Positions 1-41,498 of a stretch of DNA of 53,592 nucleotides are shown piece by piece (the first letter of the stretch is position 1; each line of letters starts with the position of its first letter). Origin of the DNA: a virus. Its lineage: Duplodnaviria > Caudoviricetes. The position numbers and the translations under genes are program-made. The stretch is taken from positions 1 through 53,592 of IMG/VR virus record IMGVR_UViG_3300043399_000721. The stretch is one strand, 5' to 3'. The notes beneath the pieces are model-generated. The model saw only the letters and a program-made list of their open reading frames with translations. It was not told the origin of the DNA and searched no databases.

Positions 1-1
1 T

Positions 2-3258: not shown

Positions 3259-3491
3259 GCTGTCAGACTTCTAAGAATGTTCAGATTTGCCTTTTCCTTT
3301 GCTCTATGTCTTTTCTGTCAGGCATATACTTTGGGACTCAAGTGACTCTTGATCGCTTTCAGGATGAAAAAGCTCATAATGCAAAGATTCTGGAGAACTG
3401 CGTTCAGGTTATGACAGGTACTATTCCAAAACATCTTGATTTTTCTAAAAAGAAGAAGAAGAAGAAAGATGTGAAGATCGCAAAAAATTAA
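3255..3491 (+). CDS. Hypothetical membrane-anchored protein with Lys-rich tail
   Basis: 78 aa; its TAA stop forms the last 3 bases of the left target-site duplication. Confidence 0.6.
   Translation: MSCQTSKNVQICLFLCSMSFLSGIYFGTQVTLDRFQDEKAHNAKILENCVQVMTGTIPKHLDFSKKKKKKKDVKIAKN
3484..3491. repeat. Left copy of 8-bp target-site duplication AAAATTAA
   Basis: Directly precedes the first base of the 2,586-bp repeat; identical to 41491-41498. Confidence 0.8.
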
Positions 3492-3539
3492 GAGGAATAT
3501 TCTGGGTGTTGGGTTCTTTAAAGACCGATAAATAAATTT

Positions 3540-4262
3540 ATGAGGCACGAGATGGAGCATTGCAGTTGCTACGAGTATGGGTTTAATCTGTCACACATGG
3601 AGGCTAATCATGTTTCATGCGCTGACTGTGGTCGAATTGTTTACCGCAAATTGAACGCACTCTTTGTTGAGAAAGAAGGGGTTTATTCAAACCTCCCAAT
3701 GGTTGAAGCATGGGACATTGAAAGAAACGCAATGAATTGCAGGAATGAACTTCCCGCTGTTGCTCATCCCCCTTGTGAAAGATGGGGGCGGTACTGGTTC
3801 GGTGGCCCATCGGTAAAAGAACGGAAGAAACTTGGAGATGATGCCGGATGTTTTGCTTTTGCTCTCTGGTACGTTCGCACCTATGGCGGAATTTTAGAGC
3901 ATCCTGAAGCGTCTCATGCGTTTAAGTTTTTCGGTCTTCCGTTACCAGAAAGAAAAGGTGGATGGAGCTCGCCGGATATTTATGGCGGCCGTTCTTGTTG
4001 TGTTGAACAGGGGCACTATGGGCACCCGGCAAGAAAAGCTACTTGGCTTTATGCCGTGAAGACAGATTACCCGGACCTAATTTGGGGGCCATGCGAAGGA
4101 AAGATGAGAATGGACGAAGGTTTTCACTCAAAGGAGCAGGCCAAGGAAATGAGAGCTCGCCCTGACTATGTTCCGGTTAAAAGATTATCGGCATACGAGA
4201 GACTGGCAACACCAGTCGATTTCAGAGACTTACTAATTAATATTGCAAGAACGGCAAGGTAA
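3540..4262 (+). CDS. Divergent phage DNA (cytosine-5) methyltransferase-like protein, copy 1
   Basis: ALFV, VAHPPC (motif IV-like PC), GGILEHP (motif VI-like) and YGHPARKATWLY (motif VIII-like); Cys-rich N-terminus. Confidence 0.6.
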   Translation: MRHEMEHCSCYEYGFNLSHMEANHVSCADCGRIVYRKLNALFVEKEGVYSNLPMVEAWDIERNAMNCRNELPAVAHPPCERWGRYWFGGPSVKERKKLGDDAGCFAFALWYVRTYGGILEHPEASHAFKFFGLPLPERKGGWSSPDIYGGRSCCVEQGHYGHPARKATWLYAVKTDYPDLIWGPCEGKMRMDEGFHSKEQAKEMRARPDYVPVKRLSAYERLATPVDFRDLLINIARTAR

Positions 4263-4283
4263 ATAATCTTAGGTAACTATCCC

Positions 4284-4312
4284 TTGACGACAAGTAGGAA
4301 TTAGTTTATACT
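4284..4312 (+). promoter_or_regulatory. Sigma70-type promoter starting inside the IS left end
   Basis: TTGACG-17 nt-TATACT, then GAGG RBS before dcm; repeated at 39697-39725. Confidence 0.75.
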
Positions 4313-4331
4313 GATTACAGAGAGGTAGAGT

Positions 4332-5144
4332 ATGCGAATTTTAAGTCTTTTTGATGGAATATCTTGTGGGCAAATAGCCTTAAACAAAGCCGGAATTTCA
4401 AATTATGACTATCTGGCTTCGGAAATAAATCCTTATGCTATTAAAGTTACACAGCATAATTTTCCAAAAACTATACAGCTTGGAGATGTAACCAAGATTA
4501 AAGGGACGGAATTAGGTAAAGTTGATTTATTGATTGGTGGAAGTCCTTGCCAAGGGTTTAGCTTTGCTGGGAATCAACTTAACTTTGAGGACGAAAGGTC
4601 TAAATTATTCTTTGAATACGTTCGACTTCTTGAGGAGACAAGCCCTAAATATTTTCTTTTAGAGAATGTTAAAATGATTAGGGAGAGCGAAGACATAATA
4701 ACTAAAATGTTGGGCGTTAAGCCTATTAAAATAAATAGTTCTCTTGTATCTGCACAAAACAGAGAGAGGCTGTATTGGACTAACTTACCCCATCCTACAA
4801 TTCAGGACAGAGGATTGGTTTTAAAGGATGTTTACGAACCTATTTCTGGCACCCCGTTAAGTGATACAACCGCTTCCAGACCTAGAACTATTCGTAATTA
4901 TAGGGGGTTAAATCAAAAATCTTCTTGTCTCTTGGCTACTATGTATAAGCTCAGTCAGAGTAATGGAATGACGGTCATTCAAGACAATGGAAAGTTACGC
5001 TGTATTACCCCCTTAGAGTGTGAAAGACTTCAAACCGTTCCTGATAACTATACTTCAATACTATCCAATACTAGAAGATACGAAGTGTTAGGTAATGGTT
5101 GGACAGTTGACGTTATAGTTGAATTTTTTAAGGGGTTGGCATGA
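4332..5144 (+). CDS. dcm: DNA (cytosine-5) methyltransferase, IS passenger, copy 1
   Basis: LSLFDGISCG (I), GGSPCQGFS (IV), FLLENV (VI), QNRERLYW (VIII), ECERLQT (IX), LGNGW (X). Confidence 0.95.
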   Translation: MRILSLFDGISCGQIALNKAGISNYDYLASEINPYAIKVTQHNFPKTIQLGDVTKIKGTELGKVDLLIGGSPCQGFSFAGNQLNFEDERSKLFFEYVRLLEETSPKYFLLENVKMIRESEDIITKMLGVKPIKINSSLVSAQNRERLYWTNLPHPTIQDRGLVLKDVYEPISGTPLSDTTASRPRTIRNYRGLNQKSSCLLATMYKLSQSNGMTVIQDNGKLRCITPLECERLQTVPDNYTSILSNTRRYEVLGNGWTVDVIVEFFKGLA

Positions 5145-6022
5145 GGTACACTATCAAAAATTTCATCAAAGACTTTCCAGACGATAAGACTTGCCTAGCC
5201 TTCATCTTTAAAAACCGTTACCCAAATGGACTAACTTGCCCTAAATGTGAAAAGACTTCATTTCATCCGGTCGAAGGTCGTAAGTCCTATGCTTGTTCAT
5301 GCGGTTATCAAACCTATCCGACTGAAGGAACTATCTTTCATAAATCACCTACGCCATTAACTCTTTGGTTTCATGCTATTTTCCTCATGTCTCAATCCAA
5401 AAATGGGGTAGCCGCTAAGGAATTAGAAAGACAGCTTGGAGTCACATATAAAACGGCTTGGAGAATGGCGAAACAAATTCGGATGCTTATGGGACAAAAT
5501 CCAGACCCATTAGGCGGTAATGAAATCATTGAAGCCGATGAAGCGTATATTGGCGGTGTTCGCAAGGGTAAACGAGGGAGAGGTGCCGCTGGTAAAACTC
5601 CTGTATTTGGAGTTGTTGAAAGGCAAGGTGAAATCAAAACTCAAGTAGTTAAAGACGTTAGGCAAGCGACAATTATTCCATTGTTTTCAAACATGGTGCC
5701 AGCACAAGCCGTTATTGTTACGGATGAATCAAGCATCTATAACAAGGTAACTAAACTAGGGCATTTGCACGAAACTATTAACCATGGAAACGGTCAGTAC
5801 GGTCGAGGAGATGTTCACACCAATACTATTGAAGGCTTTTGGTCACAGTTTAAGCGTTCGGTTCACGGGACTTTCCACGCTGTTTCACCGAAGTATTTGC
5901 AGTCTTACCTTGACGAGTTTTCTTTTCGCTACAACCATCGGAAGTCTTCGCAGTCTTTGCCTGTTTTGATGTTTTCAAGGGTTGGGACGCTTTTACCAAA
6001 AGACGAAAAAATTGCTTCATAA
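5141..6022 (+). CDS. IS1595-family (ISXO2-like) DDE transposase, copy 1
   Basis: N-terminal Zn ribbon CPKC...CSC, HTH LERQLGVTYKTAWRM, IEADEAYIGG, IVTDE, HTNTIEGFWS, YLDEFSFRYN. Confidence 0.95.
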   Translation: MRYTIKNFIKDFPDDKTCLAFIFKNRYPNGLTCPKCEKTSFHPVEGRKSYACSCGYQTYPTEGTIFHKSPTPLTLWFHAIFLMSQSKNGVAAKELERQLGVTYKTAWRMAKQIRMLMGQNPDPLGGNEIIEADEAYIGGVRKGKRGRGAAGKTPVFGVVERQGEIKTQVVKDVRQATIIPLFSNMVPAQAVIVTDESSIYNKVTKLGHLHETINHGNGQYGRGDVHTNTIEGFWSQFKRSVHGTFHAVSPKYLQSYLDEFSFRYNHRKSSQSLPVLMFSRVGTLLPKDEKIAS

Positions 6023-6348
6023 GGATTTTTAATATGAATACGAAGGATGGTCAACTTGTCACTAAGGGATACTTACCTAAAGTTATGCGGGCAAGAAGCT
6101 ATGAGACCGGCTTATGTTATAACCATCTGCAAAGAAGCACTAAAAGAAGTGGAATAAGCGCGTCCGGTAAGCTCCATTCGGGATTTGGAATCGCTGACAG
6201 ACCGATTGTGCAACGTCTGTCTTCCATAATTATTCAATATACTGCATAATTAATCACAGAAAACATTCACAATACTCGATAAGAACTACCGCTGAAAAAC
6301 TTTCAATCTGAACTCCCCTGTACCGTTTGTGGACTCTCTCTTCCCGGG

Positions 6349-6570
6349 ATGGTTGCCTACCATCACGTCTACACTCGCAAGGCTTACCCTGAGCACACTG
6401 AGGAGAACTGGAACTTAATGCCCCTGTGCTCGCATCATCACGTTGAAACGCACCGGATCGGGACAGTCTCATTCTCTCGGAAGTATCCGCAAGCGCACAA
6501 CTGGCTGATAAGGAAAGGATGGGAGTTGCACTCCGGGAAATGGATTTATCCGCATCCGGGATCGGAATAA
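6349..6570 (+). CDS. Small HNH-like Zn-binding protein
   Basis: HHVYTR...NLMPLCSHHH. Frame is open upstream through CTVC, so the true start is probably near 6292. Confidence 0.6.
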   Translation: MVAYHHVYTRKAYPEHTEENWNLMPLCSHHHVETHRIGTVSFSRKYPQAHNWLIRKGWELHSGKWIYPHPGSE

Positions 6571-6803
6571 ATAATCTCCGGGATAACCTCGTTGTCTGGC
6601 GTGCCAAGCTCCGCAGGATGCTCAACTACTACAAGAAGAAATCAGACAGCGAAGACCTTGCGCTTGTCCTGTGCTCATTCCCGTCGACCTCTGTTTATAT
6701 TTACAGCGCAACACAACTCACGTTTGAGCAGTGGCTAATGGAAGCTGAGACAATCATGAGTCAATGCTATCAAGCGGGATATCAGTACAAGGGGATGCTA
6801 TGA
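6519..6803 (+). CDS. Hypothetical protein (start uncertain)
   Basis: 94 aa ORF overlapping the previous gene. Confidence 0.45.
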   Translation: MGVALREMDLSASGIGINNLRDNLVVWRAKLRRMLNYYKKKSDSEDLALVLCSFPSTSVYIYSATQLTFEQWLMEAETIMSQCYQAGYQYKGML

Positions 6804-6915
6804 AAACCCGTTGCTGACTAATTCCTAGACAGCCATTGTAATCTTTTCAACTCTTCACCTTGGTGCGTGTTGTTGGGTTATTATGCTCTCAGGACATTAA
6901 CCGCCGGGAGGCAAT

Positions 6916-7221
6916 ATGAACACCAGAGCAATAGCAAACAACGGAAAGCCAACAATCGACGAAGGAAACGAGCATTTTATTTGGTCTTATAATGAATCAA
7001 CTAAACAGGAAAATTTGCAAATAGCTACTCTTTACCTGTGCGACTCCTGCGGCACACCTTCGACAGTGAACTCGGTTTGGGTTCTAGTGGGTTATCAATT
7101 TCCAATAGGAGTTGGAGCTGCACTTAAACAAGCTAATGAAATAAAAGAAAAATTCGGTCTTTTAACCGAACTTGGAGCTAACGAAGATGGCGATGGTTTT
7201 TGCGAGAAATGCTATAAATGA
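6916..7221 (+). CDS. Hypothetical Zn-binding protein
   Basis: GGGAGG RBS; CDSC...CEKC pairs. Confidence 0.65.
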   Translation: MNTRAIANNGKPTIDEGNEHFIWSYNESTKQENLQIATLYLCDSCGTPSTVNSVWVLVGYQFPIGVGAALKQANEIKEKFGLLTELGANEDGDGFCEKCYK

Positions 7222-7400
7222 AATATATGATATTACTTATTTTGCTTTCCTGCGGGAAGAGTGAGAAGAGATGCGTTTCAATAGAAGAAGCGCGTCTTCG
7301 ATGCAAGGCCGATGTTGTCCGAGACTACTGGCCGGGAACAGCACCCGAGTCACTCATGAAACAGTGCGAGTACTACTACCCCGTAGAAGCATGTTATTGA
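7218..7400 (+). CDS. Small lipoprotein
   Basis: MKYMILLILLSC lipoprotein signal; additional Cys residues. Confidence 0.6.
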   Translation: MKYMILLILLSCGKSEKRCVSIEEARLRCKADVVRDYWPGTAPESLMKQCEYYYPVEACY

Positions 7401-7473
7401 CTCCCGATGTAAACACACTTTAAACTGAGGTTAAGAGTCGGTGACTCGAAACATTTAACTCAGTGAGTAACTT

Positions 7474-7656
7474 GTGGAAGAAATCGGCGCAATAAGCGCA
7501 TTGCTATCAGCAATTAAAACTCGTGTTGATGGCTCAGTCAGCATCACCCTCGAAGCAAATCCATCAGAGATCGAAGTGATAAACAAATTGTTGCAGTGCT
7601 ACCTGATCGACAAGCGCTTGTTCACTGTCGCGTTCATTAGGACTGACAATGAGTAA
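7474..7656 (+). CDS. Hypothetical protein, first gene of the packaging operon
   Basis: 60 aa ORF overlapping the terS start. Confidence 0.55.
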   Translation: MEEIGAISALLSAIKTRVDGSVSITLEANPSEIEVINKLLQCYLIDKRLFTVAFIRTDNE

Positions 7657-8077
7657 GATGGGAAGACCTCACGGATACGATCCGAAGCACGTAACCGAGA
7701 TGCTAGAGTTCTTTCAGAACTGGGAAGAGTTCCGAGAAGTCGAAAAAACTGTCATTGTCGGTGGTCGGGTAACAAAGATCAAGGAAAGACTCGCAAACTA
7801 TCCTCCGACTCTGAACAAGTACGCCATCAAGCTTGGCATTGACCGCCACACACTGAAGAGATGGGCCGAAGAAAATCCTGACTTTTATGCCACATATAAA
7901 GCTTGCAAGATAATCCAGGAGGAATGGCTCTCCGATCGTGCGACCACAGGAGAGTATCACGCAGGGTTCACTAAGCTCATGCTGGTGAATCATTCGGACA
8001 TCAAGGATAGGGTTACTCACGAAGTGCATGATGCAGCGATAAAAATAAATATCGACTCAAGCGACAGCAATTTATGA
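7649..8077 (+). CDS. terS: Terminase small subunit
   Basis: MGRP..YDP N-terminus, HTH ([15 protein letters not shown]), position upstream of terL. Confidence 0.8.
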
Positions 8078-8568
8078 GCGAGTCATGGAAAGCGTTGGAC
8101 GGGTTTGATTATGAAATATCAAGCAATGGCAGAGTAAGGCATTTTAAAAACGGCTTAAAGAAATTAAGCGTTCATAGAAATGGATACTCCTCGGTTTCGC
8201 TATGGAAAAATGGCAAAGAAAAAAGAGAGCTTATCCACAGGCTTGTTGCAAAAAAATTTCTCGGCAATATTGATGGAATGGAAATTAATCATAAAGATTT
8301 TAATAAACTCAATAACAGAGTTGAAAATTTAGAAATTGTAACCAAAAAGCAAAACACTATTCACGCAAAACACGGGAAAAGATTTACTGGAAATAGAAAT
8401 GTTTCAGGGTCAAAGAATCCTGCATCAAAAATAGATGAGGAACAAGTAAGAAAAATAAGAGCCATGAAAGATTCCGGCGCAAGATATAAAGAAATTATAG
8501 AGCAATTTGGTATTAAGAAATCACAGCTATGGAACATAATTTCTGGAAAATCATGGAAGAATGCATAA
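8074..8568 (+). CDS. NUMOD4/HNH homing endonuclease
   Basis: WK...[37 protein letters not shown]-terminal HTH. Confidence 0.9.
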
Positions 8569-9826
8569 GTTTACAAAAACAGAAAAACAAAATCAGGCGA
8601 TAAAAAAACTCTCTGGCATAGCAAGACACATCATGCTTTACGGAGGATCAAGGTCAGGAAAAACATTTATTTCTGTTTACGCAATAATAGTCAGAGCATG
8701 CAAAGTAAAATCAAGGCACGCTATCCTTCGCCTAAATTTCAACCACATCAAAACATCTATATGGCTTGATACTCTTCCTAAGGTTTTAAAAATTGCCTTT
8801 CCTGATCTTTCTGTTGAATGGAACAAAACAGACTACTACATAACATTTCCAAATGGGTCAGAGATATGGATCGCTGGCCTTGATGATGAAAAGAGAGTTG
8901 AAAAGATTCTTGGTAAGGAATACTCAACAATTTACTTTAACGAGTGTTCGCAGATTCCATACAAGTCTATTCAGATTGCTCTTACAAGACTTGCAGAAAA
9001 GAATGAATTAAGAAAGAAAGCATACTACGATGAGAACCCACCATCAAAAAAACATTGGTCTTATTGGCTGTTTATAAAAAAGCTTGATCCAATAGACAAC
9101 GTTCCCGTCGAAGATGATAAGTACGAATCAATTTTAATGAATCCTGGAGACAATCTACAGAATATTGACGAAGAGTACATTTCCGAAGTGCTAAACAATC
9201 TTTCAGAAGCACAAAAGAAAAGGTTCAGGGATGGCGAATTCGCCTCGGACGATGACGGAGTTGCTTACTATTCTTTCGACAGGGAAAAGCACGTTCAACA
9301 GATAGAAAACAAATTACTACTTGGACAAAGGCTTGTCGGAATGGATTTTAACGTCCAGCCCATGACTGCCGTTGTCGCTCATTACACAAGTGGCAGGTTT
9401 TATATTTTCCAGGAAGTGTTTTTAGAGAACTCGGATACATTTAAAATGTCAGATTTCCTTATTAAAAACGGACATAAGGGAGCCAGCATTTATCCAGATT
9501 CAACCGGGAAGAACAGAAAGACATCGGGGAAATCCGATCATCACATTTTACAAGAGTCAGGCTTTAGGGTTCAATATACAAGAAACCCAATGGTTATTGA
9601 TAGGGTTAATAATATAAACAGACTCCTCATGGACGGTAAGATTATTATTTCTCCTAACTGCAAAAAACTAATAAACGACTTGGAAAAGGTTTCCTGGAAA
9701 GATGGTCAACTCGATCAAAAGTCGGACAAGATGCTTACCCACATATCGGATGCGCTCGGTTATTTATGTTGGGCGATCGAACCGCTATTAGAAAAACAAC
9801 CAGAATCTAAATTTACTCAACTATAG
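8561..9826 (+). CDS. terL: Terminase large subunit (PBSX-like)
   Basis: Walker A GGSRSGKT, Walker B IYFNE, DENP coupling motif, nuclease GMDFN...HISDALGY. Confidence 0.95.
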
Positions 9827-9833: not shown

Positions 9834-11177
9834 ATGCTCAAGCAAAGAAGAAAGGAAATCATCGACTACGTTAAGGACAATGCTTCGTTCCTGAGAACCA
9901 ACACAGAGGCACTCGACATTTACGAGGGAAATCTTCGCCCATACGTTGATGACATTCTCCGCAAGAGTCTTTCTCCTACCTATTACGGATCAATCAAGGA
10001 CAGGATTCTCCCGATCAACATTCTTCAACGTTTCGTCGATAAGGTTGCTACAACATATGCCAAGCCGCCAATCAGACACAGCGACGACGCACGAACGCAG
10101 GACTTCGTTGAGTATTACGATAAAGCACTTGCGATCAACAACTCTGGTAACATTGCCGATGCCTACTCTCACCTGTTCAAAGGCTTTGCTTGGGAGCCAT
10201 ACATCAACAAGAATGGAAAACCTGCGCTGAGAGAGCTTCCGTTTAACTCTTTCCTTGTGATGTCCGACTCGATGGTCAACCCGGAGGAAGAGACAATCTT
10301 CATCAAGCTCATGGGCAAGAAAGGACAAGACGAAGATTCGATGCTTCTCTTTGTTTACACCGATCAAGAGTTCGATGCTTTTTATCTTAACGGCAACGAA
10401 GCATCCGAGTATCTGGTGGACAACGAAGGGATCAACGTCATCGGAACCATTCCGTTTGTTTACGGCAAGAGACAGAAGAACAGGTTAATGCCCGTGCTCG
10501 ATACCGATATGCTTGCGATCACGAAGTCTATTCCATGCATGCTGACCGATGCGTCTGGCGCACAAATGTATCAGGCGTTCTCAATCATTTACGGGATTGA
10601 TATTTCTGCAGAGAATTTGAAAATGTCACCGAACGCACTATGGTCTATCAAGTCAGATCGGGAGAGTGACAAGAATCCACAACTTGGAGTTCTCACTCCG
10701 TCCGCTGATACCGATAAGGTTCTCTCATTTATCACAACCACGTTTACGCTATGGCTCGAGACAAAAGGTGTTCGCACCGGATCAACAGGACAAACAAGCG
10801 GATCAAATCTTTCTTCTGGGATCGCGAAGATCATCGACGAGATGGACGTATGGGAACTAAAGAAGAAGTCACAAGCATGGTTCAAGCAAGACGAAGAAGA
10901 ACTCTGGAACGTGAAACTTCCTAAGATTCACAACTATTGGATCAAGTCTGGCATGATTTCTCCGGCCATGGTTCCACCAATTCAGCCAGAAGAGCTTGAT
11001 GTTGATGTGGTGTTTGAAGAACCAAAACCGATGATCTCAAGAGTAGAAGAAATTTCTAATATCCGGTCAGAGCTTGAACTCGGAACGATGACCATGAAAC
11101 AAGCTATTAAACAACTTCATCCAAACCTAGAGCACTACGAGATTGAAGAAGTAATGGCAAACAGAGTCATGATGTAA
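9834..11177 (+). CDS. Portal protein
   Basis: 447 aa directly after terL; SPP1-gp6-like motifs (IPFV, SSGIAK). Confidence 0.85.
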   Translation: MLKQRRKEIIDYVKDNASFLRTNTEALDIYEGNLRPYVDDILRKSLSPTYYGSIKDRILPINILQRFVDKVATTYAKPPIRHSDDARTQDFVEYYDKALAINNSGNIADAYSHLFKGFAWEPYINKNGKPALRELPFNSFLVMSDSMVNPEEETIFIKLMGKKGQDEDSMLLFVYTDQEFDAFYLNGNEASEYLVDNEGINVIGTIPFVYGKRQKNRLMPVLDTDMLAITKSIPCMLTDASGAQMYQAFSIIYGIDISAENLKMSPNALWSIKSDRESDKNPQLGVLTPSADTDKVLSFITTTFTLWLETKGVRTGSTGQTSGSNLSSGIAKIIDEMDVWELKKKSQAWFKQDEEELWNVKLPKIHNYWIKSGMISPAMVPPIQPEELDVDVVFEEPKPMISRVEEISNIRSELELGTMTMKQAIKQLHPNLEHYEIEEVMANRVMM

Positions 11178-12808: not shown

Positions 12809-13663
12809 ATGGACGTTATCACAGGCAATACCCAGCTCGGGAATACAAAACAAGACCTAATTGCCGCAATGGTACAGCGTGAACTCGCTTTCCGTGCAAA
12901 ACTTCTTCCATTCTTCACTGACCTTTCTCCAATGGTTGGCAAAGGAATGCAATCTATCTCTATCCCTAAACTCTCCTCTTTCGCTGTCGCTGACCGTGCC
13001 GAAGGTGTTGCGGGTGAGATTTCTGCTCTCTCAACAGGTGTTGATAAACTTGAGCTTAACCAGAATCTTTATGTTTCTTGGTTGATCGACAGCATGACAG
13101 CAACTCAGTCTAACATTCCTGCTCAGCTTCTTTTCGCTCAGCGTGCTGCTGCTGCTCAAGCTCGCAAAATCGACGAGCTTATTATCGCTGAACTCGGTGC
13201 GATTGCTCATGCTTTCGTCAACGTAGGTGCTGATGCAAACGTAACTTACGCTAACCTCACTACTATGGTTCGTGAACTCGAAGAAAATGAAGCTATGATG
13301 GAAGATTGTGTATGGCTCGTTTCTCCTGCGCAGAAAGAAGCTATCTTCAATCTCGCTGAATTTAAGAACCAGTATCAGTTTGGTCAGGCAACACTCCCAA
13401 GTGGTGTTATCGGAACAATTCTTGGAATTCCAGTAGTCATGCACTCTGGTCTCGCCTCTGTTCAGGTTTACCTCGCTGAGAAGTCTGGTCTTGCTTACGC
13501 ATTTCAGAAGACTGCTTCTTACGCTGAAGAGAACGAAATTGCTTACGGTGTTGGCGCTAAACGTGCTGCCGTTGATCAACTCTTTGGTCTTAAGGGTATG
13601 CAGCTTGGCCAGAAAGGTGCTGCTGCAGGCAAGTCTCCACTGGTTATCGGTCTCAACGACTAG
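12809..13663 (+). CDS. Major capsid protein (HK97 fold)
   Basis: 284 aa, strong codon bias, GVIGTILGIPVV motif, follows scaffold, followed by terminator. Confidence 0.88.
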   Translation: MDVITGNTQLGNTKQDLIAAMVQRELAFRAKLLPFFTDLSPMVGKGMQSISIPKLSSFAVADRAEGVAGEISALSTGVDKLELNQNLYVSWLIDSMTATQSNIPAQLLFAQRAAAAQARKIDELIIAELGAIAHAFVNVGADANVTYANLTTMVRELEENEAMMEDCVWLVSPAQKEAIFNLAEFKNQYQFGQATLPSGVIGTILGIPVVMHSGLASVQVYLAEKSGLAYAFQKTASYAEENEIAYGVGAKRAAVDQLFGLKGMQLGQKGAAAGKSPLVIGLND

Positions 13664-30849: not shown

Positions 30850-31397
30850 TGTCATTTTTAAATCCATCGCTCAGCGGACAGTCTGTATTTAATCTTCCGA
30901 TTATATTTACTGCAACATACTCGTCACCATCTACAATTCTTTTAAATGGTGGCGGTGTTTTATCTGGTTTTTCTTCTACTCAGTTTGCTTCCTACAATGC
31001 GGTTAATGGTGTTGTTGATATTCTGCAAACAGGTAAGTATAGAGTAAGCATGGTTGCTTATGCCAAATGCAATATGGCGCACACTACTGGGTTTGGAAAT
31101 TTCTCATTTGTTGCAGGATCAACAATTCTTTACACTATACAAAAAAACTATACGGCAAACACATTTGCATCAAATACACTTCCACTTTGGTTTTGGTATA
31201 ATCGTTCTACGAGTACACTAGATAGAACTTCTCCTGTTGCTGCTGCAAACGCTGGTTACAATTTTGAAGGAACAATCATTCATTCATCTGAGCTTATTCT
31301 GAATAGGAATGATACAGTTTATCTTAACTGCACATTGACAGCTGGTACATTTACTGGCGCATTTGATGGTTATATTCAAGTAGAGCAACTTGCATGA
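30849..31397 (+). CDS. Putative receptor-binding protein (C1q/TNF-like jelly roll)
   Basis: GVVDILQTGKYRV...LILNRNDTVYL pattern. Confidence 0.5.
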   Translation: MSFLNPSLSGQSVFNLPIIFTATYSSPSTILLNGGGVLSGFSSTQFASYNAVNGVVDILQTGKYRVSMVAYAKCNMAHTTGFGNFSFVAGSTILYTIQKNYTANTFASNTLPLWFWYNRSTSTLDRTSPVAAANAGYNFEGTIIHSSELILNRNDTVYLNCTLTAGTFTGAFDGYIQVEQLA

Positions 31398-31780
31398 TCA
31401 CACTATCTGAATACCTCATGGGAAGAGATAAAGATTTCCCTCTCGATATGCTTCAAGCAAGAAATGCCGCTGAACTTTTATCTAGGGTAAATTGGCTTTT
31501 TGGTACTCTTGAAATTCATGCAAAGGTAAGCTCTGGTTATCGACCATCGTACATTAACAAAAAGATTGGTGGTGCTAAGATGAGCACTCACACTGTTTGC
31601 GCTGGCATTGATTTACACGATCACGATGGTATGCTTGCAGCAAGACTTCTCGATCATCTCGACCTTTTGGAAGCCGCTGGCCTCTGGATGGAAAATCCAG
31701 ACTACACGAAGAACAGCAACGGATCGGGATGGGTTCACTTAGACACAAAGCAAAGAAAAAACCGGGTGTTTATCCCTTAG
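31394..31780 (+). CDS. Endolysin, peptidase M15A family
   Basis: SSGYRP, GGAKMSTH...GID and WVHLD Zn-ligand motifs. Confidence 0.85.
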   Translation: MITLSEYLMGRDKDFPLDMLQARNAAELLSRVNWLFGTLEIHAKVSSGYRPSYINKKIGGAKMSTHTVCAGIDLHDHDGMLAARLLDHLDLLEAAGLWMENPDYTKNSNGSGWVHLDTKQRKNRVFIP

Positions 31781-34232: not shown

Positions 34233-34607
34233 TTAGAATATCCATTTTATCGGAGTCTTTGCATCCATTACCTCAAGGAGGTTGGAGTTGCTTGGCGATG
34301 CGTAGCGCACTCCGCCAAGCTCCCCGGCGAACTTGTATGTTGCTCCGTCAAGCGTGCAGAAGAGAGTCCCGATGTCTTTGAGGTCACCAAACTCCTGCAT
34401 GGTCACGCCCTCAATCCGGGCGGCGAAGACCTCAATCAGGCGCGGAAGAATCTCGGCGGGTGCGCGAAGATTGTGAATAAACTCTTCAAAAACTTTCTCC
34501 TCACTCTTGTAAGATAAAAGAGTGTCCTTTGCGCTGGTTGGATTTTTTTGAATTTGCTCTGCTAACTGGTAAAGCTCTCTTGTTTTCATTCGTGACTCCG
34601 TGGTCAA
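34233..34607 (-). CDS. Hypothetical protein (start probably MKTREL)
   Basis: ORF in the leftward early operon, GGAG RBS. Confidence 0.55.
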   Translation of the reverse strand: MTTESRMKTRELYQLAEQIQKNPTSAKDTLLSYKSEEKVFEEFIHNLRAPAEILPRLIEVFAARIEGVTMQEFGDLKDIGTLFCTLDGATYKFAGELGGVRYASPSNSNLLEVMDAKTPIKWIF

Positions 34608-35175
34608 GGTTGTATAAATCTTCCCGGGTTGTCCGAGAAAGAAAGCGTTTCATAATCGCAATGCAAGCGAGCGCGTCCGATCGTGCGTTGTGATGTTGAA
34701 GCTCGATACCCAAACTATCACACACCGCTGAGAGTGAAAGAGACTGTGAATTTATTTCGTGTTGGAAAAGTTTGCAGAGGGAGTGGGTTGAAAATGGTTT
34801 CACCCGGGCAATCGAATAGTACGCACTGGTTCCAAGGTTCAAGAGATTGATGCGCAGCACTGCCCAATCGTAATAGACAAGCTTGCCGAACATGACGGCG
34901 TTGCTGTGGCACCAAAACTCTGTGATTCTGTGCTCCTTAAACCACGCGATAATCTTCTCCGCCTCCTTCTCGAAACGAGGATACCGGGCGCACTCTTCCC
35001 TTGAGATTCCATGCACAGCATATGCTTCCTCTGAATAGCGGTATGGGTTGCACCTGATTTTAAGCTCACTCACTATTTCAAGATCGTCGTTCAATGCAAA
35101 GAATTGTGCATCCAAAATCTCTGCATCGAACACGTTCTTTGATGTTGTCTCAAAATCTGCAACACAAATCATCAC
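34501..35175 (-). CDS. DEDDh 3'-5' exonuclease (DnaQ-like)
   Basis: VADFETT, AYAVHGI, HHNARSDA. Confidence 0.85.
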   Translation of the reverse strand: MMICVADFETTSKNVFDAEILDAQFFALNDDLEIVSELKIRCNPYRYSEEAYAVHGISREECARYPRFEKEAEKIIAWFKEHRITEFWCHSNAVMFGKLVYYDWAVLRINLLNLGTSAYYSIARVKPFSTHSLCKLFQHEINSQSLSLSAVCDSLGIELQHHNARSDALACIAIMKRFLSRTTREDLYNLDHGVTNENKRALPVSRANSKKSNQRKGHSFILQE

Positions 35176-35699
35176 TGTCTCTTTGGTTGATTCTGCTCGA
35201 TCAGTTTAGAAGCTTCCGCCTTGCTGATATTCGCGGCGAATTTAATCCCCAGACGGGTGAGCAATCCTTTCTGTGCGTCAGATGCTAAAACCTGCACCTG
35301 AGCCGTTTCTGTGCGATTGGCTAACGGTTGAGAGGCATGGTTAGCATCGTCGTCTTCTTCTTTGGTGCTAATCCCAAGGAGAGCTTGCAACTGATAACGC
35401 TTGTAATACGATAAAAGAGAACCAAAACGCTGGGGGTCAGCAAGCTGCGGAAGGATCATTTCTGAGATCATTTCCTCACCTGATTCGTGGACTAGGCGCG
35501 TTATCAGAATGGTCTTGTCTCCCTCGACACGCATCGGTTGAAGAATCGCCAAGCCGTTCGCCGCGAGAATCGGACGAACCGCATCGAGTATCCCGGAGAG
35601 TGACAGGTAATCGCTCTTAAAAAAGGGGTTCTCTGAGTCCTTCGCTACGGGTTTAAGCTGTGCGTGAAACTTAACGAGTGCGCTGTTTAGTGCTTTCAT
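35172..35699 (-). CDS. erf: ERF-family single-strand annealing protein
   Basis: KDSENPFFKSDY, LVHESGE, GSLLSYYKRYQLQALLGI...DDDAN. Confidence 0.9.
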   Translation of the reverse strand: MKALNSALVKFHAQLKPVAKDSENPFFKSDYLSLSGILDAVRPILAANGLAILQPMRVEGDKTILITRLVHESGEEMISEMILPQLADPQRFGSLLSYYKRYQLQALLGISTKEEDDDANHASQPLANRTETAQVQVLASDAQKGLLTRLGIKFAANISKAEASKLIEQNQPKRQ

Positions 35700-36501: not shown

Positions 36502-36507
36502 TTGGTC

Positions 36508-37476
36508 ATGGATAAAGTCACTTTCCACGATTTGGTTCAATCGTTAAAGAATCTCGCCAAGGAACTGGGAAGGACTCCTACTCTGCTCGAGTTTGCTAAC
36601 ATCCATTCCCGGCGACAAATCGACAAGTTTAAGTACAGTAAGATTGTTTCCGCTGCAGGTCTTGAACCAAACAAATACTCTCAGTCAACTGATCCGGTAG
36701 AAGTTGTTATTCGTCCTCCTAAGATTCTCGTGTTTGACTTGGAAGTCTCGACGAAGATTGTCCACACTTATCAGATGTACGATGTGAATCATTCTCCTGA
36801 TCACGTCATTCAAGACTTTTACATTCTTTCGTTTGCAGCGAAGTGGATCGGATCAGATGAAGTCATCTACATGGACATTCGGAACGCTCGCCCGAAGAAT
36901 AATGACCTTTCGCTCTTGAAGAAACTGCACGCCCTGATAGATGAAGCTGATTTCGTCGTCGGTCACAACATGGGACGATTTGATCTTCCCACGATTAAGT
37001 CGCGATTCATTATGAATGATCTTCCTCCAGTGAGGGATGTTCCGGTGATTGATACTCTGAGGATCGCCCGGAAGCACTTCAAGTTTACCTCGAACAAACT
37101 TTCTGAACTGGCGAAGTATCTCAAGTGTAAAAACGAGAAAGATTCACACTCAGAGTTTCCCGGAATAAGTCTTTTTACCGAGGCGATGAAAGGAAACAAG
37201 CGTGCTTTTGAGTCAATGGAGCACTACTGCAAAATGGATGTTGTAGTGACGGAGCAAATATTTCATAAGCTCGCTCCGTGGGAGAAGACCATCAACTTCC
37301 AATCGTTTTATCAGGAAGCTGTTTGTTCATGCGGCAATAAACAATTCTACAAGAACGGGCTGAAGTATCAGCGATCAGGAATTTTCCAAATATGGAGATG
37401 CTCGGTTTGTCAGAAGACGTTCATTGATAAACACAATCACCTAAACAAAGACATCAAGAAAGGGTTACTGAGTTAG
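36508..37476 (+). CDS. RNase H-like DEDD exonuclease with N-terminal helical repeat and C-terminal Zn ribbon
   Basis: LVFDLE, VGHNMGRFDLP, YCKMDV; LAKELGRTPT N-terminus; CSCG...CSVC. Confidence 0.85.
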   Translation: MDKVTFHDLVQSLKNLAKELGRTPTLLEFANIHSRRQIDKFKYSKIVSAAGLEPNKYSQSTDPVEVVIRPPKILVFDLEVSTKIVHTYQMYDVNHSPDHVIQDFYILSFAAKWIGSDEVIYMDIRNARPKNNDLSLLKKLHALIDEADFVVGHNMGRFDLPTIKSRFIMNDLPPVRDVPVIDTLRIARKHFKFTSNKLSELAKYLKCKNEKDSHSEFPGISLFTEAMKGNKRAFESMEHYCKMDVVVTEQIFHKLAPWEKTINFQSFYQEAVCSCGNKQFYKNGLKYQRSGIFQIWRCSVCQKTFIDKHNHLNKDIKKGLLS

Positions 37477-38119: not shown

Positions 38120-38410
38120 ATGATTCGTAAATCAACTCACCTTGCCAAGTTCATGAAGGACAAGCGCGAAGCACTCGGACTCTCTCAGAAGCAACTTTCA
38201 GTTTCGATGGGATTCTCAAAAAACGGCGGTCCTCAGTATATCTCCAACACTGAGCGCGGAACTTGTCAGTTCCCGATCAAACACCTCCCGAAACTTTCCG
38301 CTGCACTCAGCACCGACCTTGATGAACTCAAGAAACTCATCGTGTCGGATTACGAGCTTTTTATTTCTCAAGCAATCGAGAAAAAAAATGAAGACACAAC
38401 AATCGCTTAG
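38120..38410 (+). CDS. XRE-family HTH transcriptional regulator
   Basis: KREALGLSQKQL...QYISNTERG; AGGAGG RBS. Confidence 0.88.
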   Translation: MIRKSTHLAKFMKDKREALGLSQKQLSVSMGFSKNGGPQYISNTERGTCQFPIKHLPKLSAALSTDLDELKKLIVSDYELFISQAIEKKNEDTTIA

Positions 38411-38753
38411 CACTCCTGAACTCTGGGTGACAGAGCGCGGGGAAGTGTATCTCAACAACGAGAAGAAAATAAACATCGTGGTCTTTCACGACTACGGGAT
38501 TCGCGGCCCAATCGTGAACTTCCGCAAAGGAAAGTCGGTGAGACAAGTATCAGTCTACCGCATGATGTATGAGGTGTTTGTTCTCGGAAGAAGACTCTCC
38601 CGGAGCGAGCATATCGAACCGATTGACGGGAACGATGGTAACTGTGAGATCACAAATCTCAGACTGAATCACGTTCGTTTCTCGGATCGCATCCGGGCAA
38701 CTAACGAAGAATCTTACTTTACATGGATGGGTATTGATGAAGTCTACTGTTAG
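38388..38753 (+). CDS. Degenerate HNH-endonuclease-like protein
   Basis: VYRMMYEVF...PIDGNDGNCEITNL; the catalytic His appears lost. Confidence 0.55.
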   Translation: MKTQQSLSTPELWVTERGEVYLNNEKKINIVVFHDYGIRGPIVNFRKGKSVRQVSVYRMMYEVFVLGRRLSRSEHIEPIDGNDGNCEITNLRLNHVRFSDRIRATNEESYFTWMGIDEVYC

Positions 38754-38934
38754 GCGAGCAGAGATGATTAGAATGGCATTAGCTTCATTAATGAAAGACT
38801 TGGGTGAGGAAGAGAAGCTCGACTTCCTCACTGAGGTTTTTCTGATCACAGAGGATATTCGGCACGAACTGTGTTATCCCGAGGAAGAGCTAACGGAAGA
38901 ACCCGAGGAATATTCTGGGTGTTGGGTTCTTTAA
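38734..38934 (+). CDS. Hypothetical acidic protein whose 3' end lies inside repeat copy 2
   Basis: Last codons (EEYSGCWVL-stop) are encoded by the first 30 bp of the repeat. Confidence 0.55.
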   Translation: MMKSTVRRAEMIRMALASLMKDLGEEEKLDFLTEVFLITEDIRHELCYPEEELTEEPEEYSGCWVL

Positions 38935-38952
38935 AGACCGATAAATAAATTT

Positions 38953-39675
38953 ATGAGGCACGAGATGGAGCATTGCAGTTGCTACGAGTATGGGTTTAAT
39001 CTGTCACACATGGAGGCTAATCATGTTTCATGCGCTGACTGTGGTCGAATTGTTTACCGCAAATTGAACGCACTCTTTGTTGAGAAAGAAGGGGTTTATT
39101 CAAACCTCCCAATGGTTGAAGCATGGGACATTGAAAGAAACGCAATGAATTGCAGGAATGAACTTCCCGCTGTTGCTCATCCCCCTTGTGAAAGATGGGG
39201 GCGGTACTGGTTCGGTGGCCCATCGGTAAAAGAACGGAAGAAACTTGGAGATGATGCCGGATGTTTTGCTTTTGCTCTCTGGTACGTTCGCACCTATGGC
39301 GGAATTTTAGAGCATCCTGAAGCGTCTCATGCGTTTAAGTTTTTCGGTCTTCCGTTACCAGAAAGAAAAGGTGGATGGAGCTCGCCGGATATTTATGGCG
39401 GCCGTTCTTGTTGTGTTGAACAGGGGCACTATGGGCACCCGGCAAGAAAAGCTACTTGGCTTTATGCCGTGAAGACAGATTACCCGGACCTAATTTGGGG
39501 GCCATGCGAAGGAAAGATGAGAATGGACGAAGGTTTTCACTCAAAGGAGCAGGCCAAGGAAATGAGAGCTCGCCCTGACTATGTTCCGGTTAAAAGATTA
39601 TCGGCATACGAGAGACTGGCAACACCAGTCGATTTCAGAGACTTACTAATTAATATTGCAAGAACGGCAAGGTAA
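38953..39675 (+). CDS. Divergent C5 methyltransferase-like protein, copy 2
   Basis: Identical translation to 3540-4262. Confidence 0.6.
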   Translation: MRHEMEHCSCYEYGFNLSHMEANHVSCADCGRIVYRKLNALFVEKEGVYSNLPMVEAWDIERNAMNCRNELPAVAHPPCERWGRYWFGGPSVKERKKLGDDAGCFAFALWYVRTYGGILEHPEASHAFKFFGLPLPERKGGWSSPDIYGGRSCCVEQGHYGHPARKATWLYAVKTDYPDLIWGPCEGKMRMDEGFHSKEQAKEMRARPDYVPVKRLSAYERLATPVDFRDLLINIARTAR

Positions 39676-39744
39676 ATAATCTTAGGTAACTATCCCTTGA
39701 CGACAAGTAGGAATTAGTTTATACTGATTACAGAGAGGTAGAGT

Positions 39745-40557
39745 ATGCGAATTTTAAGTCTTTTTGATGGAATATCTTGTGGGCAAATAGCCTTAAACAA
39801 AGCCGGAATTTCAAATTATGACTATCTGGCTTCGGAAATAAATCCTTATGCTATTAAAGTTACACAGCATAATTTTCCAAAAACTATACAGCTTGGAGAT
39901 GTAACCAAGATTAAAGGGACGGAATTAGGTAAAGTTGATTTATTGATTGGTGGAAGTCCTTGCCAAGGGTTTAGCTTTGCTGGGAATCAACTTAACTTTG
40001 AGGACGAAAGGTCTAAATTATTCTTTGAATACGTTCGACTTCTTGAGGAGACAAGCCCTAAATATTTTCTTTTAGAGAATGTTAAAATGATTAGGGAGAG
40101 CGAAGACATAATAACTAAAATGTTGGGCGTTAAGCCTATTAAAATAAATAGTTCTCTTGTATCTGCACAAAACAGAGAGAGGCTGTATTGGACTAACTTA
40201 CCCCATCCTACAATTCAGGACAGAGGATTGGTTTTAAAGGATGTTTACGAACCTATTTCTGGCACCCCGTTAAGTGATACAACCGCTTCCAGACCTAGAA
40301 CTATTCGTAATTATAGGGGGTTAAATCAAAAATCTTCTTGTCTCTTGGCTACTATGTATAAGCTCAGTCAGAGTAATGGAATGACGGTCATTCAAGACAA
40401 TGGAAAGTTACGCTGTATTACCCCCTTAGAGTGTGAAAGACTTCAAACCGTTCCTGATAACTATACTTCAATACTATCCAATACTAGAAGATACGAAGTG
40501 TTAGGTAATGGTTGGACAGTTGACGTTATAGTTGAATTTTTTAAGGGGTTGGCATGA
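39745..40557 (+). CDS. dcm: DNA (cytosine-5) methyltransferase, copy 2
   Basis: Identical translation to 4332-5144. Confidence 0.95.
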   Translation: MRILSLFDGISCGQIALNKAGISNYDYLASEINPYAIKVTQHNFPKTIQLGDVTKIKGTELGKVDLLIGGSPCQGFSFAGNQLNFEDERSKLFFEYVRLLEETSPKYFLLENVKMIRESEDIITKMLGVKPIKINSSLVSAQNRERLYWTNLPHPTIQDRGLVLKDVYEPISGTPLSDTTASRPRTIRNYRGLNQKSSCLLATMYKLSQSNGMTVIQDNGKLRCITPLECERLQTVPDNYTSILSNTRRYEVLGNGWTVDVIVEFFKGLA

Positions 40558-41435
40558 GGTACACTATCAAAAATTTCATCAAAGACTTTCCAGACGATAA
40601 GACTTGCCTAGCCTTCATCTTTAAAAACCGTTACCCAAATGGACTAACTTGCCCTAAATGTGAAAAGACTTCATTTCATCCGGTCGAAGGTCGTAAGTCC
40701 TATGCTTGTTCATGCGGTTATCAAACCTATCCGACTGAAGGAACTATCTTTCATAAATCACCTACGCCATTAACTCTTTGGTTTCATGCTATTTTCCTCA
40801 TGTCTCAATCCAAAAATGGGGTAGCCGCTAAGGAATTAGAAAGACAGCTTGGAGTCACATATAAAACGGCTTGGAGAATGGCGAAACAAATTCGGATGCT
40901 TATGGGACAAAATCCAGACCCATTAGGCGGTAATGAAATCATTGAAGCCGATGAAGCGTATATTGGCGGTGTTCGCAAGGGTAAACGAGGGAGAGGTGCC
41001 GCTGGTAAAACTCCTGTATTTGGAGTTGTTGAAAGGCAAGGTGAAATCAAAACTCAAGTAGTTAAAGACGTTAGGCAAGCGACAATTATTCCATTGTTTT
41101 CAAACATGGTGCCAGCACAAGCCGTTATTGTTACGGATGAATCAAGCATCTATAACAAGGTAACTAAACTAGGGCATTTGCACGAAACTATTAACCATGG
41201 AAACGGTCAGTACGGTCGAGGAGATGTTCACACCAATACTATTGAAGGCTTTTGGTCACAGTTTAAGCGTTCGGTTCACGGGACTTTCCACGCTGTTTCA
41301 CCGAAGTATTTGCAGTCTTACCTTGACGAGTTTTCTTTTCGCTACAACCATCGGAAGTCTTCGCAGTCTTTGCCTGTTTTGATGTTTTCAAGGGTTGGGA
41401 CGCTTTTACCAAAAGACGAAAAAATTGCTTCATAA
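40554..41435 (+). CDS. IS1595-family transposase, copy 2
   Basis: Identical translation to 5141-6022. Confidence 0.95.
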   Translation: MRYTIKNFIKDFPDDKTCLAFIFKNRYPNGLTCPKCEKTSFHPVEGRKSYACSCGYQTYPTEGTIFHKSPTPLTLWFHAIFLMSQSKNGVAAKELERQLGVTYKTAWRMAKQIRMLMGQNPDPLGGNEIIEADEAYIGGVRKGKRGRGAAGKTPVFGVVERQGEIKTQVVKDVRQATIIPLFSNMVPAQAVIVTDESSIYNKVTKLGHLHETINHGNGQYGRGDVHTNTIEGFWSQFKRSVHGTFHAVSPKYLQSYLDEFSFRYNHRKSSQSLPVLMFSRVGTLLPKDEKIAS

Positions 41436-41490
41436 GGATTTTTAATATGAATACGAAGGATGGTCAACTTGTCACTAAGGGATACTTACC

Positions 41491-41498
41491 AAAATTAA
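41491..41498. repeat. Right copy of 8-bp target-site duplication AAAATTAA
   Basis: Abuts the IS right end; identical to 3484-3491. Confidence 0.8.

Follow-up and report, generated by a model that had tools for sequence, protein, structure and literature searches.

A phage gene and an adjoining IS1595-family element repeated at both junctions of two phage genomes in one viral contig

The window, i.e. the whole stretch of 53,592 bp analyzed here, holds a phage genome bounded by two copies of a 2,586-bp unit and flanked by the two arms of another, phage-like sequence (Table 1). The copies at 3492-6077 and 38905-41490 agree in all 2,586 bp (100% identity, direct repeat, offset 35,413), and identity is lost sharply beyond either end. 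The unit is composed of a 780-bp phage gene segment and a 1,806-bp IS1595-family insertion sequence (IS). A pair of AAAATTAA abuts the two copies on their outer sides (3484-3491 and 41491-41498), the chance of an identical 8-mer being 1.9e-5 in general and 5.7e-5 for the AT-rich AAAATTAA at the base composition of the window. When the insert and one 8-mer are removed in silico, the TAA of ORF 3255-3491 (ending in ...KKDVKIAKN) lies 21 nt 5' of the ATG at 41513, from which a protein starting with MKLILIAFVF is read, and GGAG stands between this TAA and this ATG. A sequence-only reading of the window had proposed the order flank, unit, phage, unit and flank, an 8-bp duplication around the unit, and a stop, ribosome-binding site and start restored by excision; the first is borne out by the 100% identity, the second by AAAATTAA outside both copies and the third by TAA, GGAG and ATG 41513 found in that order. 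Where the unit borders the inner phage, AAGAACCC versus TAAAGTTA, no duplication is found, and a donor duplication is not split between them.

Table 1. Coordinates of the features in the window
Feature	Coordinates	Strand	Remarks
Outer left arm	1-3483	+	small ORFs, the last being ORF 3255-3491
Target-site duplication copy 1	3484-3491	.	AAAATTAA; contains TAA stop of ORF 3255-3491
Captured non-IS segment copy 1	3492-4271	+	ORF1 3540-4262, 240 aa
IS1595-family IS copy 1	4272-6077	+	1,806 bp; inverted repeats, Pfam
IRL	4272-4295		IS copy 1
C5 DNA methyltransferase	4332-5144	+	IS copy 1; PF00145
Transposase	5141-6022	+	IS copy 1; PF12762, PF12760
IRR	6054-6077		IS copy 1
Inner phage genome	6078-38904	+	profile matches; closed gene order in relatives
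TerS	7649-8077		inner phage
HNH	8074-8568		inner phage
TerL	8561-9826		inner phage
Major head	12809-13663		inner phage
Fibre	14729-17320		inner phage
Tape measure	20778-22703		inner phage
Endolysin	31394-31780		inner phage
Exonuclease	34501-35175	-	inner phage
Erf	35172-35699	-	inner phage
Exonuclease	36502-37476		inner phage
HTH regulator (HTH_3)	38120-38410		inner phage
Captured segment copy 2	38905-39684	+	ORF1 38953-39675; runs on from the inner phage's own left flank
IS1595-family IS copy 2	39685-41490	+	methyltransferase 39745-40557, transposase 40554-41435, IRR 41467-41490
Target-site duplication copy 2	41491-41498	.	AAAATTAA
Outer right arm	41499-53592	.	profile matches, tRNA
ORF 41513-41887	41513-41887		outer right arm
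tRNA-Gln	41898-41972		outer right arm
Avd-like	42445-42798		outer right arm
L5 gp82-like	44153-44689	-	outer right arm
Fibre-like genes	45086-53516	-	outer right arm

The transposase, third ORF of the unit (293 aa), matches PF12762 (DDE_Tnp_IS1595, ISXO2-like; E 4.7e-43, residues 128-265) and carries an N-terminal zinc ribbon (PF12760, E 8.2e-09), in agreement with its earlier assignment to the IS1595 family. The inverted-repeat arms stand at 4263-4295 and 6054-6086, their 24-bp termini being alike at 20/24, and the 24-nt end consensus GGTAACTATCCCTTGACGACAAGT recurs at both ends of related elements in IMG/VR and MAG contigs. Across the window, a PWM of IS ends yields only four high-scoring ends, all belonging to the two IS copies, and an independent contig from the unrelated run X3 terminates exactly at 6077. 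The repeated unit had previously been taken for the IS itself; this cannot be kept, as IRL lies 780 bp inside the left edge of the unit. For the IS proper within the inner phage, the flanks TAATCTTA and TAAAGTTA match at 6/8 only. Relatives of the transposase are found at 27 IMG/VR loci, on uncultivated viral contigs, and in 3 of 50,697 GenBank phage records, all at ≤35% identity. Of 14 distinct related elements for which both ends could be located, 4 (L091, L094, L096 and L181) are surrounded by perfect 8-bp AT-rich duplications, which supports the earlier statement that IS1595 elements make duplications of this length. The IS1595 family includes passenger-gene subgroups of the ISNwi1/ISSod11 type with known end motifs. 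The present element shares with them the ISXO2-like DDE domain and zinc ribbon, inverted repeats starting with GG..A.TAT, 8-bp duplications in its relatives and a passenger, here a methyltransferase, inside the inverted repeats, whereas its clade comes from uncultivated viral contigs (the 27 loci above).

The 780-bp segment sits outside the inverted repeats of the IS. Its ORF1 has no Pfam match and resembles clusters annotated as phage "hypothetical protein", a similarity to methyltransferases being faintly apparent; its 94 relatives in IMG/VR include none above 62% identity. No ORF1 homologue occurs at any of the 27 transposase loci and no transposase at any of 80 ORF1 loci, and ORF1 is a widespread phage gene and not a cargo of the IS. 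ORF 38734-38934 extends 30 nt into copy 2 of the segment. A native origin of ORF1 in the inner phage is plausible and no more, because the gene is missing from the closest inner-phage relatives and its homologues usually lie in replication modules (six of ten checked, against one of ten with a terminase downstream). The left end at 3492 is barely like an inverted repeat: its score falls within the best 16% of positions in the window when 24 nt are compared, and within the best 1.4% when the initial 12 nt are.

The inner segment has genes for packaging, head, tail, lysis and recombination. In four relatives of the inner phage (L111, L112, L113 and L120), homologues of 38319-38753, then of 6349-6570, then TerS and TerL are adjacent, with neither IS nor ORF1; three of them (L112, L113 and L120) are on contigs of 22.6-37.7 kb. 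Because the four relatives keep the gene order closed across the junction, the inner genome is a complete replicon, and its 32.8 kb together with one unit (about 35.4 kb) make up a whole phage genome in circularly permuted form. The gene set from packaging to lysis and the closed relatives thus agree with the former view of the segment as a whole tailed phage. That view also included the lack of a recognizable integrase, and no integrase family was detected in the 36 longer inner ORFs, which were scanned with PHROGs and Pfam.

In the outer genome, the left-arm ORFs scanned have no Pfam or PHROG match. The flank matches obtained, to Phage_T7_tail, Phage_L5_gp82 and tail-fibre PHROGs, fit the viral look ascribed to the flanks, and the outer part is an incomplete phage-like genome. 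A search for its relatives returned none, hence no empty site to compare.

Independent contigs were taken from Logan, where runs X1 and X2 derive from one freshwater sample and each contig has a single mean k-mer value as its depth. In both runs, the unit is a separate node of the assembly graph with two entries and two exits, and forms its own 2,586-bp contig with a depth of 58.5 in X1 and 88.6 in X2. The outer-left/unit junction is present in an X2 contig of 5,482 bp (depth 36.2) that covers 1-3521 and runs 1,961 bp past the window start; the unit/outer-right junction, in a 12,071-bp contig joined to the right end of the IS (26.8 in X1, 39 in X2). The unit/inner-right junction is carried by an X1 contig (6048-6614), and the inner-left/unit junction appears in both runs as a loose end at 3492 with the inner left flank. 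No independent contig of X1 or X2 spans the whole unit. Outer contigs have depths of 26.8 (X1) and of 36.2 and 39 (X2), inner contigs of 39-44 (X1) and 39-63 (X2), so that the depth of the unit is about the sum of outer and inner. Such a sum fits fused and separate forms alike. The inner/outer ratio is 1.1-1.7 in X1 and X2, inner exceeding outer in every comparison, although a second inner-like strain (bubbles at 10628-10991) may inflate the inner depth. Unequal depth had been put forward, along with resolved junctions supported by reads, as what would refute a physical cointegrate, and an inner phage at 1.1-1.7 times the outer speaks against a pure one; the depths would still allow a fused share of as much as about 60-90% of the inner copies.

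The order outer, unit, inner, unit, outer is expected from an unresolved cointegrate, and equally from a circular and a linear genome with a common repeat. Such a repeat makes a two-edge loop in the graph, which SPAdes-type assemblers can walk once. Given the greater depth of the inner phage, the record is most likely such an assembly path; any true cointegrate would then be a minor or transient form. Had long reads entered the assembly of the record, its path would be read-supported. With moderate confidence, it is proposed that ORF1 and the IS moved as one unit from the inner to the outer phage by a single transposase event, the inner phage being free and circular. An IS1595-family IS would have stood beside ORF1 in the inner phage of about 35.4 kb. 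In a cell with both phages, the transposase would have combined the true right end (6077/41490) with a left end that is non-canonical and lies 780 bp upstream of IRL, and joined the unit to the intergenic AAAATTAA of the outer phage by the 8-bp staggered cut of the family, an ISEcp1-like capture of flanking DNA. The assembler would then have walked the outer genome carrying the unit and the free circular inner phage as one path. A non-canonical left end is needed since the repeat consists of the 780-bp segment plus the IS, and the use of a surrogate end by the transposase is inferred accordingly; the direction was presumably from inner to outer because the duplication is on the outer side only. 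The sequence-only reading had a plain IS cointegrate or a recombination between IS copies, neither of which yields the segment plus the IS as the repeat. Its further point, that the duplication still marks a recent inter-phage transposition even if the contig is an assembly product, is upheld: however the contig arose, the duplication is the record of a recent transfer between two phages.

In the account of ISEcp1 (IS1380 family) in PMC6061673, a unit has 5-bp repeats beside IRL and a deduced IRR1. The present unit resembles the units described there by one true IS end (IRR) and a family-length duplication round the whole, and possibly by a surrogate end past adjacent DNA, whose likeness to the inverted repeat is weak. 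It has IS1595-type domains instead of an IS1380 transposase, and is perhaps ISEcp1-like in its working, not a member; it also differs by a capture on the IRL side rather than on the IRR side, by a duplication of 8 bp instead of 5 bp, and by its cargo, a phage gene moving between phages in place of a resistance gene.

That the contig is a true molecule, the product of an IS1595-family transposase that joined the complete siphovirus-like genome of a phage with no integrase into the genome of another phage, is possible but doubtful. Its fuller form, rather unlikely, supposes replicative transposition from the circular inner phage, or recombination over 2.6 kb between the outer genome carrying the unit and the inner phage, with fused molecules as a substantial share and the extra inner depth due to free or replicating inner phage. 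The structural fit is exact, with two identical direct copies at both replicon junctions and the target duplication outside, an arrangement matching the textbook description of IS6/IS26 replicon fusion by replicative transposition in a review (PMC7986276). Here, however, the transposase is of the IS1595 family, the repeated unit extends 780 bp past the left inverted repeat of the IS and so does not equal the element defined by its own ends, no donor duplication exists on the inner flanks and the physical fusion is putative. Inner and outer depths within 1.1-1.7-fold in both runs would look as if most copies were linked, whereas the inner depth is always the higher and no independent contig spans the unit. 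The Erf and exonucleases of the inner phage would favor such recombination, but would also resolve a fusion fast, and a 38-kb insert would be unlikely to fit the capsid of the outer phage. IS1 forms cointegrates. IS1595 is reportedly related to IS1 (Siguier et al. 2009); the transposition pathway of IS1595 itself is not established, and a literature search on IS1595 and cointegrates gave nothing on point among the papers listed.

It is improbable that the unit is the integration module of an integrase-less phage, stable in host-borne outer DNA as an IS-bounded transposable prophage, with the inner excess reflecting low-level induction. The principle is known from the IScream phages (Nature 2025), IS30-bounded prophages that their authors liken to a composite transposon (PMC12823448). 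In both cases, a whole integrase-less phage genome is bounded by IS elements, and here the duplication lies outside, an HTH_3 regulator is present and the inner/outer ratio of 1.1-1.7 is comparable with the range of 1-3x given there for induction. The IScream prophages described have, in contrast, one intact outward-facing and one decayed IS30 copy, in a bacterial chromosome and with long-read and PCR support, whereas two identical direct IS1595 copies stand here between phage-like flanks known from contigs only. Besides, the left end is not the IRL of the IS and has the look of a single accident, not of a module shaped by evolution, the IS is missing from the closest inner relatives, and neither unit junction is found elsewhere in IMG/VR.

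A single phage genome of about 48 kb with two unit copies and no second phage is highly improbable. GC content is similar (inner 0.415, outer 0.436), the inner-outer tetranucleotide correlation is 0.89 against 0.93 within the inner part, homologous fibre genes occur in both parts (66.8% identity over 802 nt) and CheckV gives 100% completeness; but the inner relatives, three of them on the 22.6-37.7-kb contigs, keep the two ends adjacent and lack outer genes apart from the fibre homology, the outer arms rejoin as a clean stop/RBS/start with an 8-bp duplication, and the depths of both parts differ. Just as improbable is a chance or microhomology match of the 8-mers, with the unit held in common through homologous or illegitimate recombination and no transposition into the outer genome, since a left boundary without a convincing inverted repeat and the commonness of AT-rich 8-mers are outweighed by a probability of about 2-6e-5 at the single place required, a right boundary at the exact conserved IRR tip and a length equal to the duplications of related elements.

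Phages are considered to tolerate IS elements poorly (Leclercq, Gilbert and Cordaux 2012, PMC3429520), and a link has been drawn between inter-phage gene flow and transposase-carrying phages (PMC8136500). The unit offers a junction-level example in which a phage-dwelling IS1595-family element would have put a neighboring phage gene into an unrelated phage with a clean 8-bp duplication, and capture with transposition would be a direct route to phage mosaicism without need of homology. It also carries a caution, as a repeat common to a circular and a linear genome can give a "phage within phage" contig that CheckV rates 100% complete, as it does this record. If the contig were a true molecule, it would be a natural phage-phage cointegrate with the captured gene and the IS doubled at both junctions; transposases would then make phage mosaics in one step, and such fusion might provide an improvised means of integration.

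The record, a linear sequence of 53,592 bp with a CheckV value of 100%, contains one 2,586-bp unit twice, at 3492-6077 and 38905-41490, as identical copies offset by 35,413. The 8-mer AAAATTAA lies directly outside both copies (3484-3491 and 41491-41498). That this match arose by chance is very improbable: given the base composition of the window, the same 8-mer would occur at this single position with a probability of 1.9e-5 in general and of 5.7e-5 for AAAATTAA. Without the insert and one 8-mer, the TAA stop of ORF 3255-3491 precedes the ATG at 41513 by 21 nt, and a GGAG lies in the interval; the sequence-only reading had described the repeat, the outside 8-mer, and this rejoined stop, RBS, and start correctly. 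The inner flanks, AAGAACCC and TAAAGTTA, show no duplication. The 8-bp duplication adjoins outer DNA at either end, which marks the outer genome as the target. In copy 2, the left part of the unit continues from inner-phage sequence, ORF 38734-38934 extending 30 nt into the unit. Exact searches of IMG/VR with a 30-mer from the inner left flank and a 25-mer from the left end of the unit returned no match. Wrap-around of a circular 35.4-kb genome was ruled out, as only the 2,586 bp recur at the offset. Terminal direct repeats of the inner phage were rejected too, since the sequence runs on past each copy and the junction is closed in relatives with no unit present.

Within the unit, positions 4263-4295 pair with 6054-6086 as an inverted repeat, whose 24-nt core GGTAACTATCCCTTGACGACAAGT begins at 4272 and agrees at 20 of 24 positions with a partner ending at 6077. 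The same core is found at element ends of transposase relatives on IMG/VR contigs and in three MAG contigs. A PWM for IS ends, built from 24 such ends of related elements, scored strongly at just four window positions (4272, 39685, 6077, and 41490). These ends place the IS proper at 4272-6077 (1,806 bp); the methyltransferase is its passenger, and the 780 bp at the start of the repeat, including ORF1, fall outside it.

Features of the repeated unit, the inner phage, and the outer arms
Feature	Coordinates	Strand	Part	Remarks
ORF1	3540-4262; 38953-39675		unit	240 aa, no Pfam family
C5 DNA methyltransferase	4332-5144		unit	PF00145, 3e-46
IS1595-type transposase	5141-6022		unit	PF12762, 4.7e-43; PF12760, 8.2e-09
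TerS	7649-8077		inner	
HNH endonuclease	8074-8568		inner	
TerL	8561-9826		inner	
Fibre	14729-17320	+	inner	
Small ORFs			outer left arm	no matches
tRNA-Gln (TTG)	41898-41972		outer right arm	
Avd-like / 23S-rRNA-intervening-sequence protein	42445-42798		outer	PF05635, 1.8e-21
L5 gp82-like protein			outer	
Fibre-like proteins	45086-53516	-	outer	T7 tail-fibre N-terminal domain

Relatives of the transposase occur on 27 IMG/VR contigs, with at most 82% identity over the full length and at most 87% on partial matches. Both ends were located for 14 distinct related elements, and four of these have a perfect AT-rich 8-bp duplication (AAAAAGAT in L091, TTTTATAT in L094, TTGTCAAT in L096, and AAAAAGAA in L181), which supports the 8-bp rule for this IS clade. 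Even a distant transposase relative is present in only 3 of 50,697 GenBank phage records. The nearest matches in prokaryote genomes (GTDB, 73-77%) have the same inverted repeats as the window IS and stand on 2.8-8-kb contigs of three MAGs (L180-L182) labelled Rhabdochlamydiaceae, Pseudomonadales, and Promethearchaeota, which are unrelated phyla; the contigs are probably of viral origin and entered the MAGs through binning. One phage contig (L093) carries four right-end inverted repeats of the clade within 3 kb (5419, 6330, 7421, and 8218) and a partial second transposase piece at 6316-6504; solo ends arranged as an array, or MITE-like derivatives, may account for them.

ORF1 is a member of a large family of phage genes for which Pfam has no model, its 94 IMG/VR relatives all showing at most 62% identity. 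The protein atlas groups it with phage clusters annotated 'hypothetical' and shows a faint resemblance to C5 methyltransferase clusters (model pTM 0.84), and it adjoins, just upstream, the methyltransferase of the IS. The transposase is absent from all 80 ORF1 loci kept and ORF1 from all 27 transposase loci, so that, across these loci, the pairing is unique to this window. Homologues of ORF1 mostly reside within replication modules: downstream of them, among 10 loci checked, primase, helicase, or polymerase genes were found at six, a terminase at one, and no match at three. A native place of ORF1 in the inner phage, prompted by the terminase downstream of its homologue in L011 and L075, is weakened by these counts, which come from other loci (6/10 replication genes, 1/10 terminase). 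ORF1 is also absent from the closest inner-phage relatives (L111, L112, L113, and L120).

Had the IS moved by canonical transposition, or had two plain IS copies recombined, the left inverted repeat (IRL) would stand beside AAAATTAA; in fact, 780 bp of inner-phage DNA separate the two. The simplest account is one transposase event in which the right inverted repeat (IRR) was paired with a non-canonical left end, at 3492, and by which the unit would have passed from the inner phage into the outer genome as target. The weakness of this account is the putative surrogate end: its PWM signal is weak, placing 3492 within the top 16% when 24 nt are scored and the top 1.4% for 12 nt, and it scarcely resembles the inverted repeat. 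ISEcp1, as PMC6061673 describes it, moves flanking genes via a deduced alternative end with the duplication around the whole unit; the window unit may work alike, but belongs to the IS1595 family. In the literature searched on the IS1595 transposition pathway, no paper addressed the pathway by its title or the start of its abstract, and in PMC7986276, IS1595 appears in the reference list only.

The inner part encodes TerS, an HNH endonuclease, TerL, a major head protein, a fibre, a minor tail protein, a tape measure, an endolysin, Erf, two exonucleases, and an HTH regulator. The inner ORFs scanned included no integrase, as the first reading had held. TerL has 57 relatives in IMG/VR; its closest cultured matches are from Synechococcus phages (46% over 59% of the query). 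Four contigs with TerL at 76-86% (L112, 37.7 kb; L120, 37.1 kb; L113, 22.6 kb; L111, 11.4 kb) carry homologues of 38319-38753, 6349-6570, TerS, and TerL in succession, with IS and ORF1 absent. Because these relatives close the gene order across the junction, 6078-38904 and one unit together make up a complete genome of 35,413 bp, circularly permuted so that it opens at the unit. L110, from another IMG dataset (97.65% identity over 4,986 nt), starts within the IS 3' end and continues into the inner right flank; the IS therefore occupies the same site in a near-identical phage elsewhere. The HNH gene lies between TerS and TerL, also in L111-L113, and TerS abuts TerL directly in another relative (L115); the gene is a packaging-associated HNH or else a mobile insert.

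The outer part is phage-like (tRNA-Gln, L5 gp82-like protein, T7-type fibre-like proteins); the sequence-only reading had likewise called the flanks viral-looking. Despite the CheckV value, which probably reflects inner relatives of about 36 kb, it is incomplete, because an independent contig extends past position 1 of the window by 1,961 bp and the final fibre gene is still open at 53592, where the window ends. No outer relative was found by megablast of both arms against 50,697 phage records, by an exact left-arm 38-mer or the protein of 41513-41887 in IMG/VR and metagenome contigs (JGI for the 38-mer), or by an 898-aa outer protein against GenBank phages. The gp82-like protein occurs at 13 loci, each sharing only that gene with the outer part, and in all 257 loci examined the outer-part homologues are only this gene and one fibre gene. 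Base composition is close to that of the inner part, and one segment of the outer fibre genes is homologous, at 66.8% over 802 nt, to part of the inner fibre gene on the opposite strand; both are consistent with a host common to the two phages. The outer fibre genes have 63/84-nt periodic repeats at 49685-50078, and the fibre of an inner relative (L114) shares 52% identity with outer ORF 48684-51677 over about 510 aa. The tRNA-Gln neighbours the Avd-like gene; no reverse transcriptase was found among the outer ORFs scanned.

Logan contigs of X1 and X2, two runs from the same sample that contain 98-99% of sampled words, bear on the physical form. Each of the four junctions occurs in them. The outer-left junction with the unit lies in an X2 contig over 1-3521, the inner-right one in X1 (6048-6614), and the outer-right one is a joint with a 12,071-bp contig in both runs; the inner-left junction is a loose end at 3492 in both. 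The unit is a separate 2,586-bp contig that no contig spans. Depths, which are rough (mean k-mer depth, one value per contig, one sample, with a second inner-like strain as a further caveat), are 58.5 for the unit, 26.8 for the outer part, and 39-44 for the inner part in X1, and 88.6, 36.2 and 39, and 39-63 in X2. Unit depth is about outer plus inner, as expected for fused and separate forms equally. Unequal depth had been proposed as a test of the cointegrate: the inner part is about 1.1- to 1.7-fold deeper than the outer, so a share of inner genomes is unfused, and at most about 60-90% could be fused. At the portal gene (10628-10991), both runs hold alternative contigs with clustered differences, at depths of 15-32 beside 34-42; at least two inner-phage strains are present.

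The graph is a two-edge loop, from the unit through the inner arc and back to the unit. SPAdes-type assemblers would be expected to walk such a loop once at depths near 1:1. An outer genome carrying one unit, together with a free circular inner phage, would therefore give exactly this record, and such an assembly path is, by a cautious judgement, the reading we favour. A real physical cointegrate is possible but rather doubtful: inner depth exceeds outer and no contig spans the unit, although the architecture matches IS6/IS26 replicon fusion as described in PMC7986276, where, differing from the window, the unit is the element itself and a donor duplication is present. An integration module like that of the IScream phages, likewise IS-bounded and integrase-less, has little probability; these involve IS30, bacterial chromosomes, and read support (PMC12823448), unlike the window. 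That the record is a single genome, or that the 8-mer match is due to chance, likewise has little probability.

The window differs from the full-depth X1/X2 contigs by single bases at 128, 2264, and 7322, so that X1 and X2 may represent a sister data set and not the source itself. In X1, 1-3335 is without cover among Logan contigs, a hole that carries no evidential weight. Nine further runs (X4-X12) contain small shares of sampled words, and X4 gave only three short pieces at 90-95%; these were given no weight. Three joints with short sides (2510->17364, 6641->7248, and 2193..8206 in a record of run X3) were taken as unrelated.

The first observation is confirmed and its overall interpretation partly supported: transposase-made transfer between phages stands, the unit is more than a single IS, and a whole phage inside another virus is unproven, the assembly path being more likely. 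Firmly established is that a transposase recently transferred a phage gene and an IS between two co-occurring phages. Phages are reported to tolerate IS poorly (PMC3429520); the IS clade of the window is nevertheless carried on 27 IMG/VR contigs.
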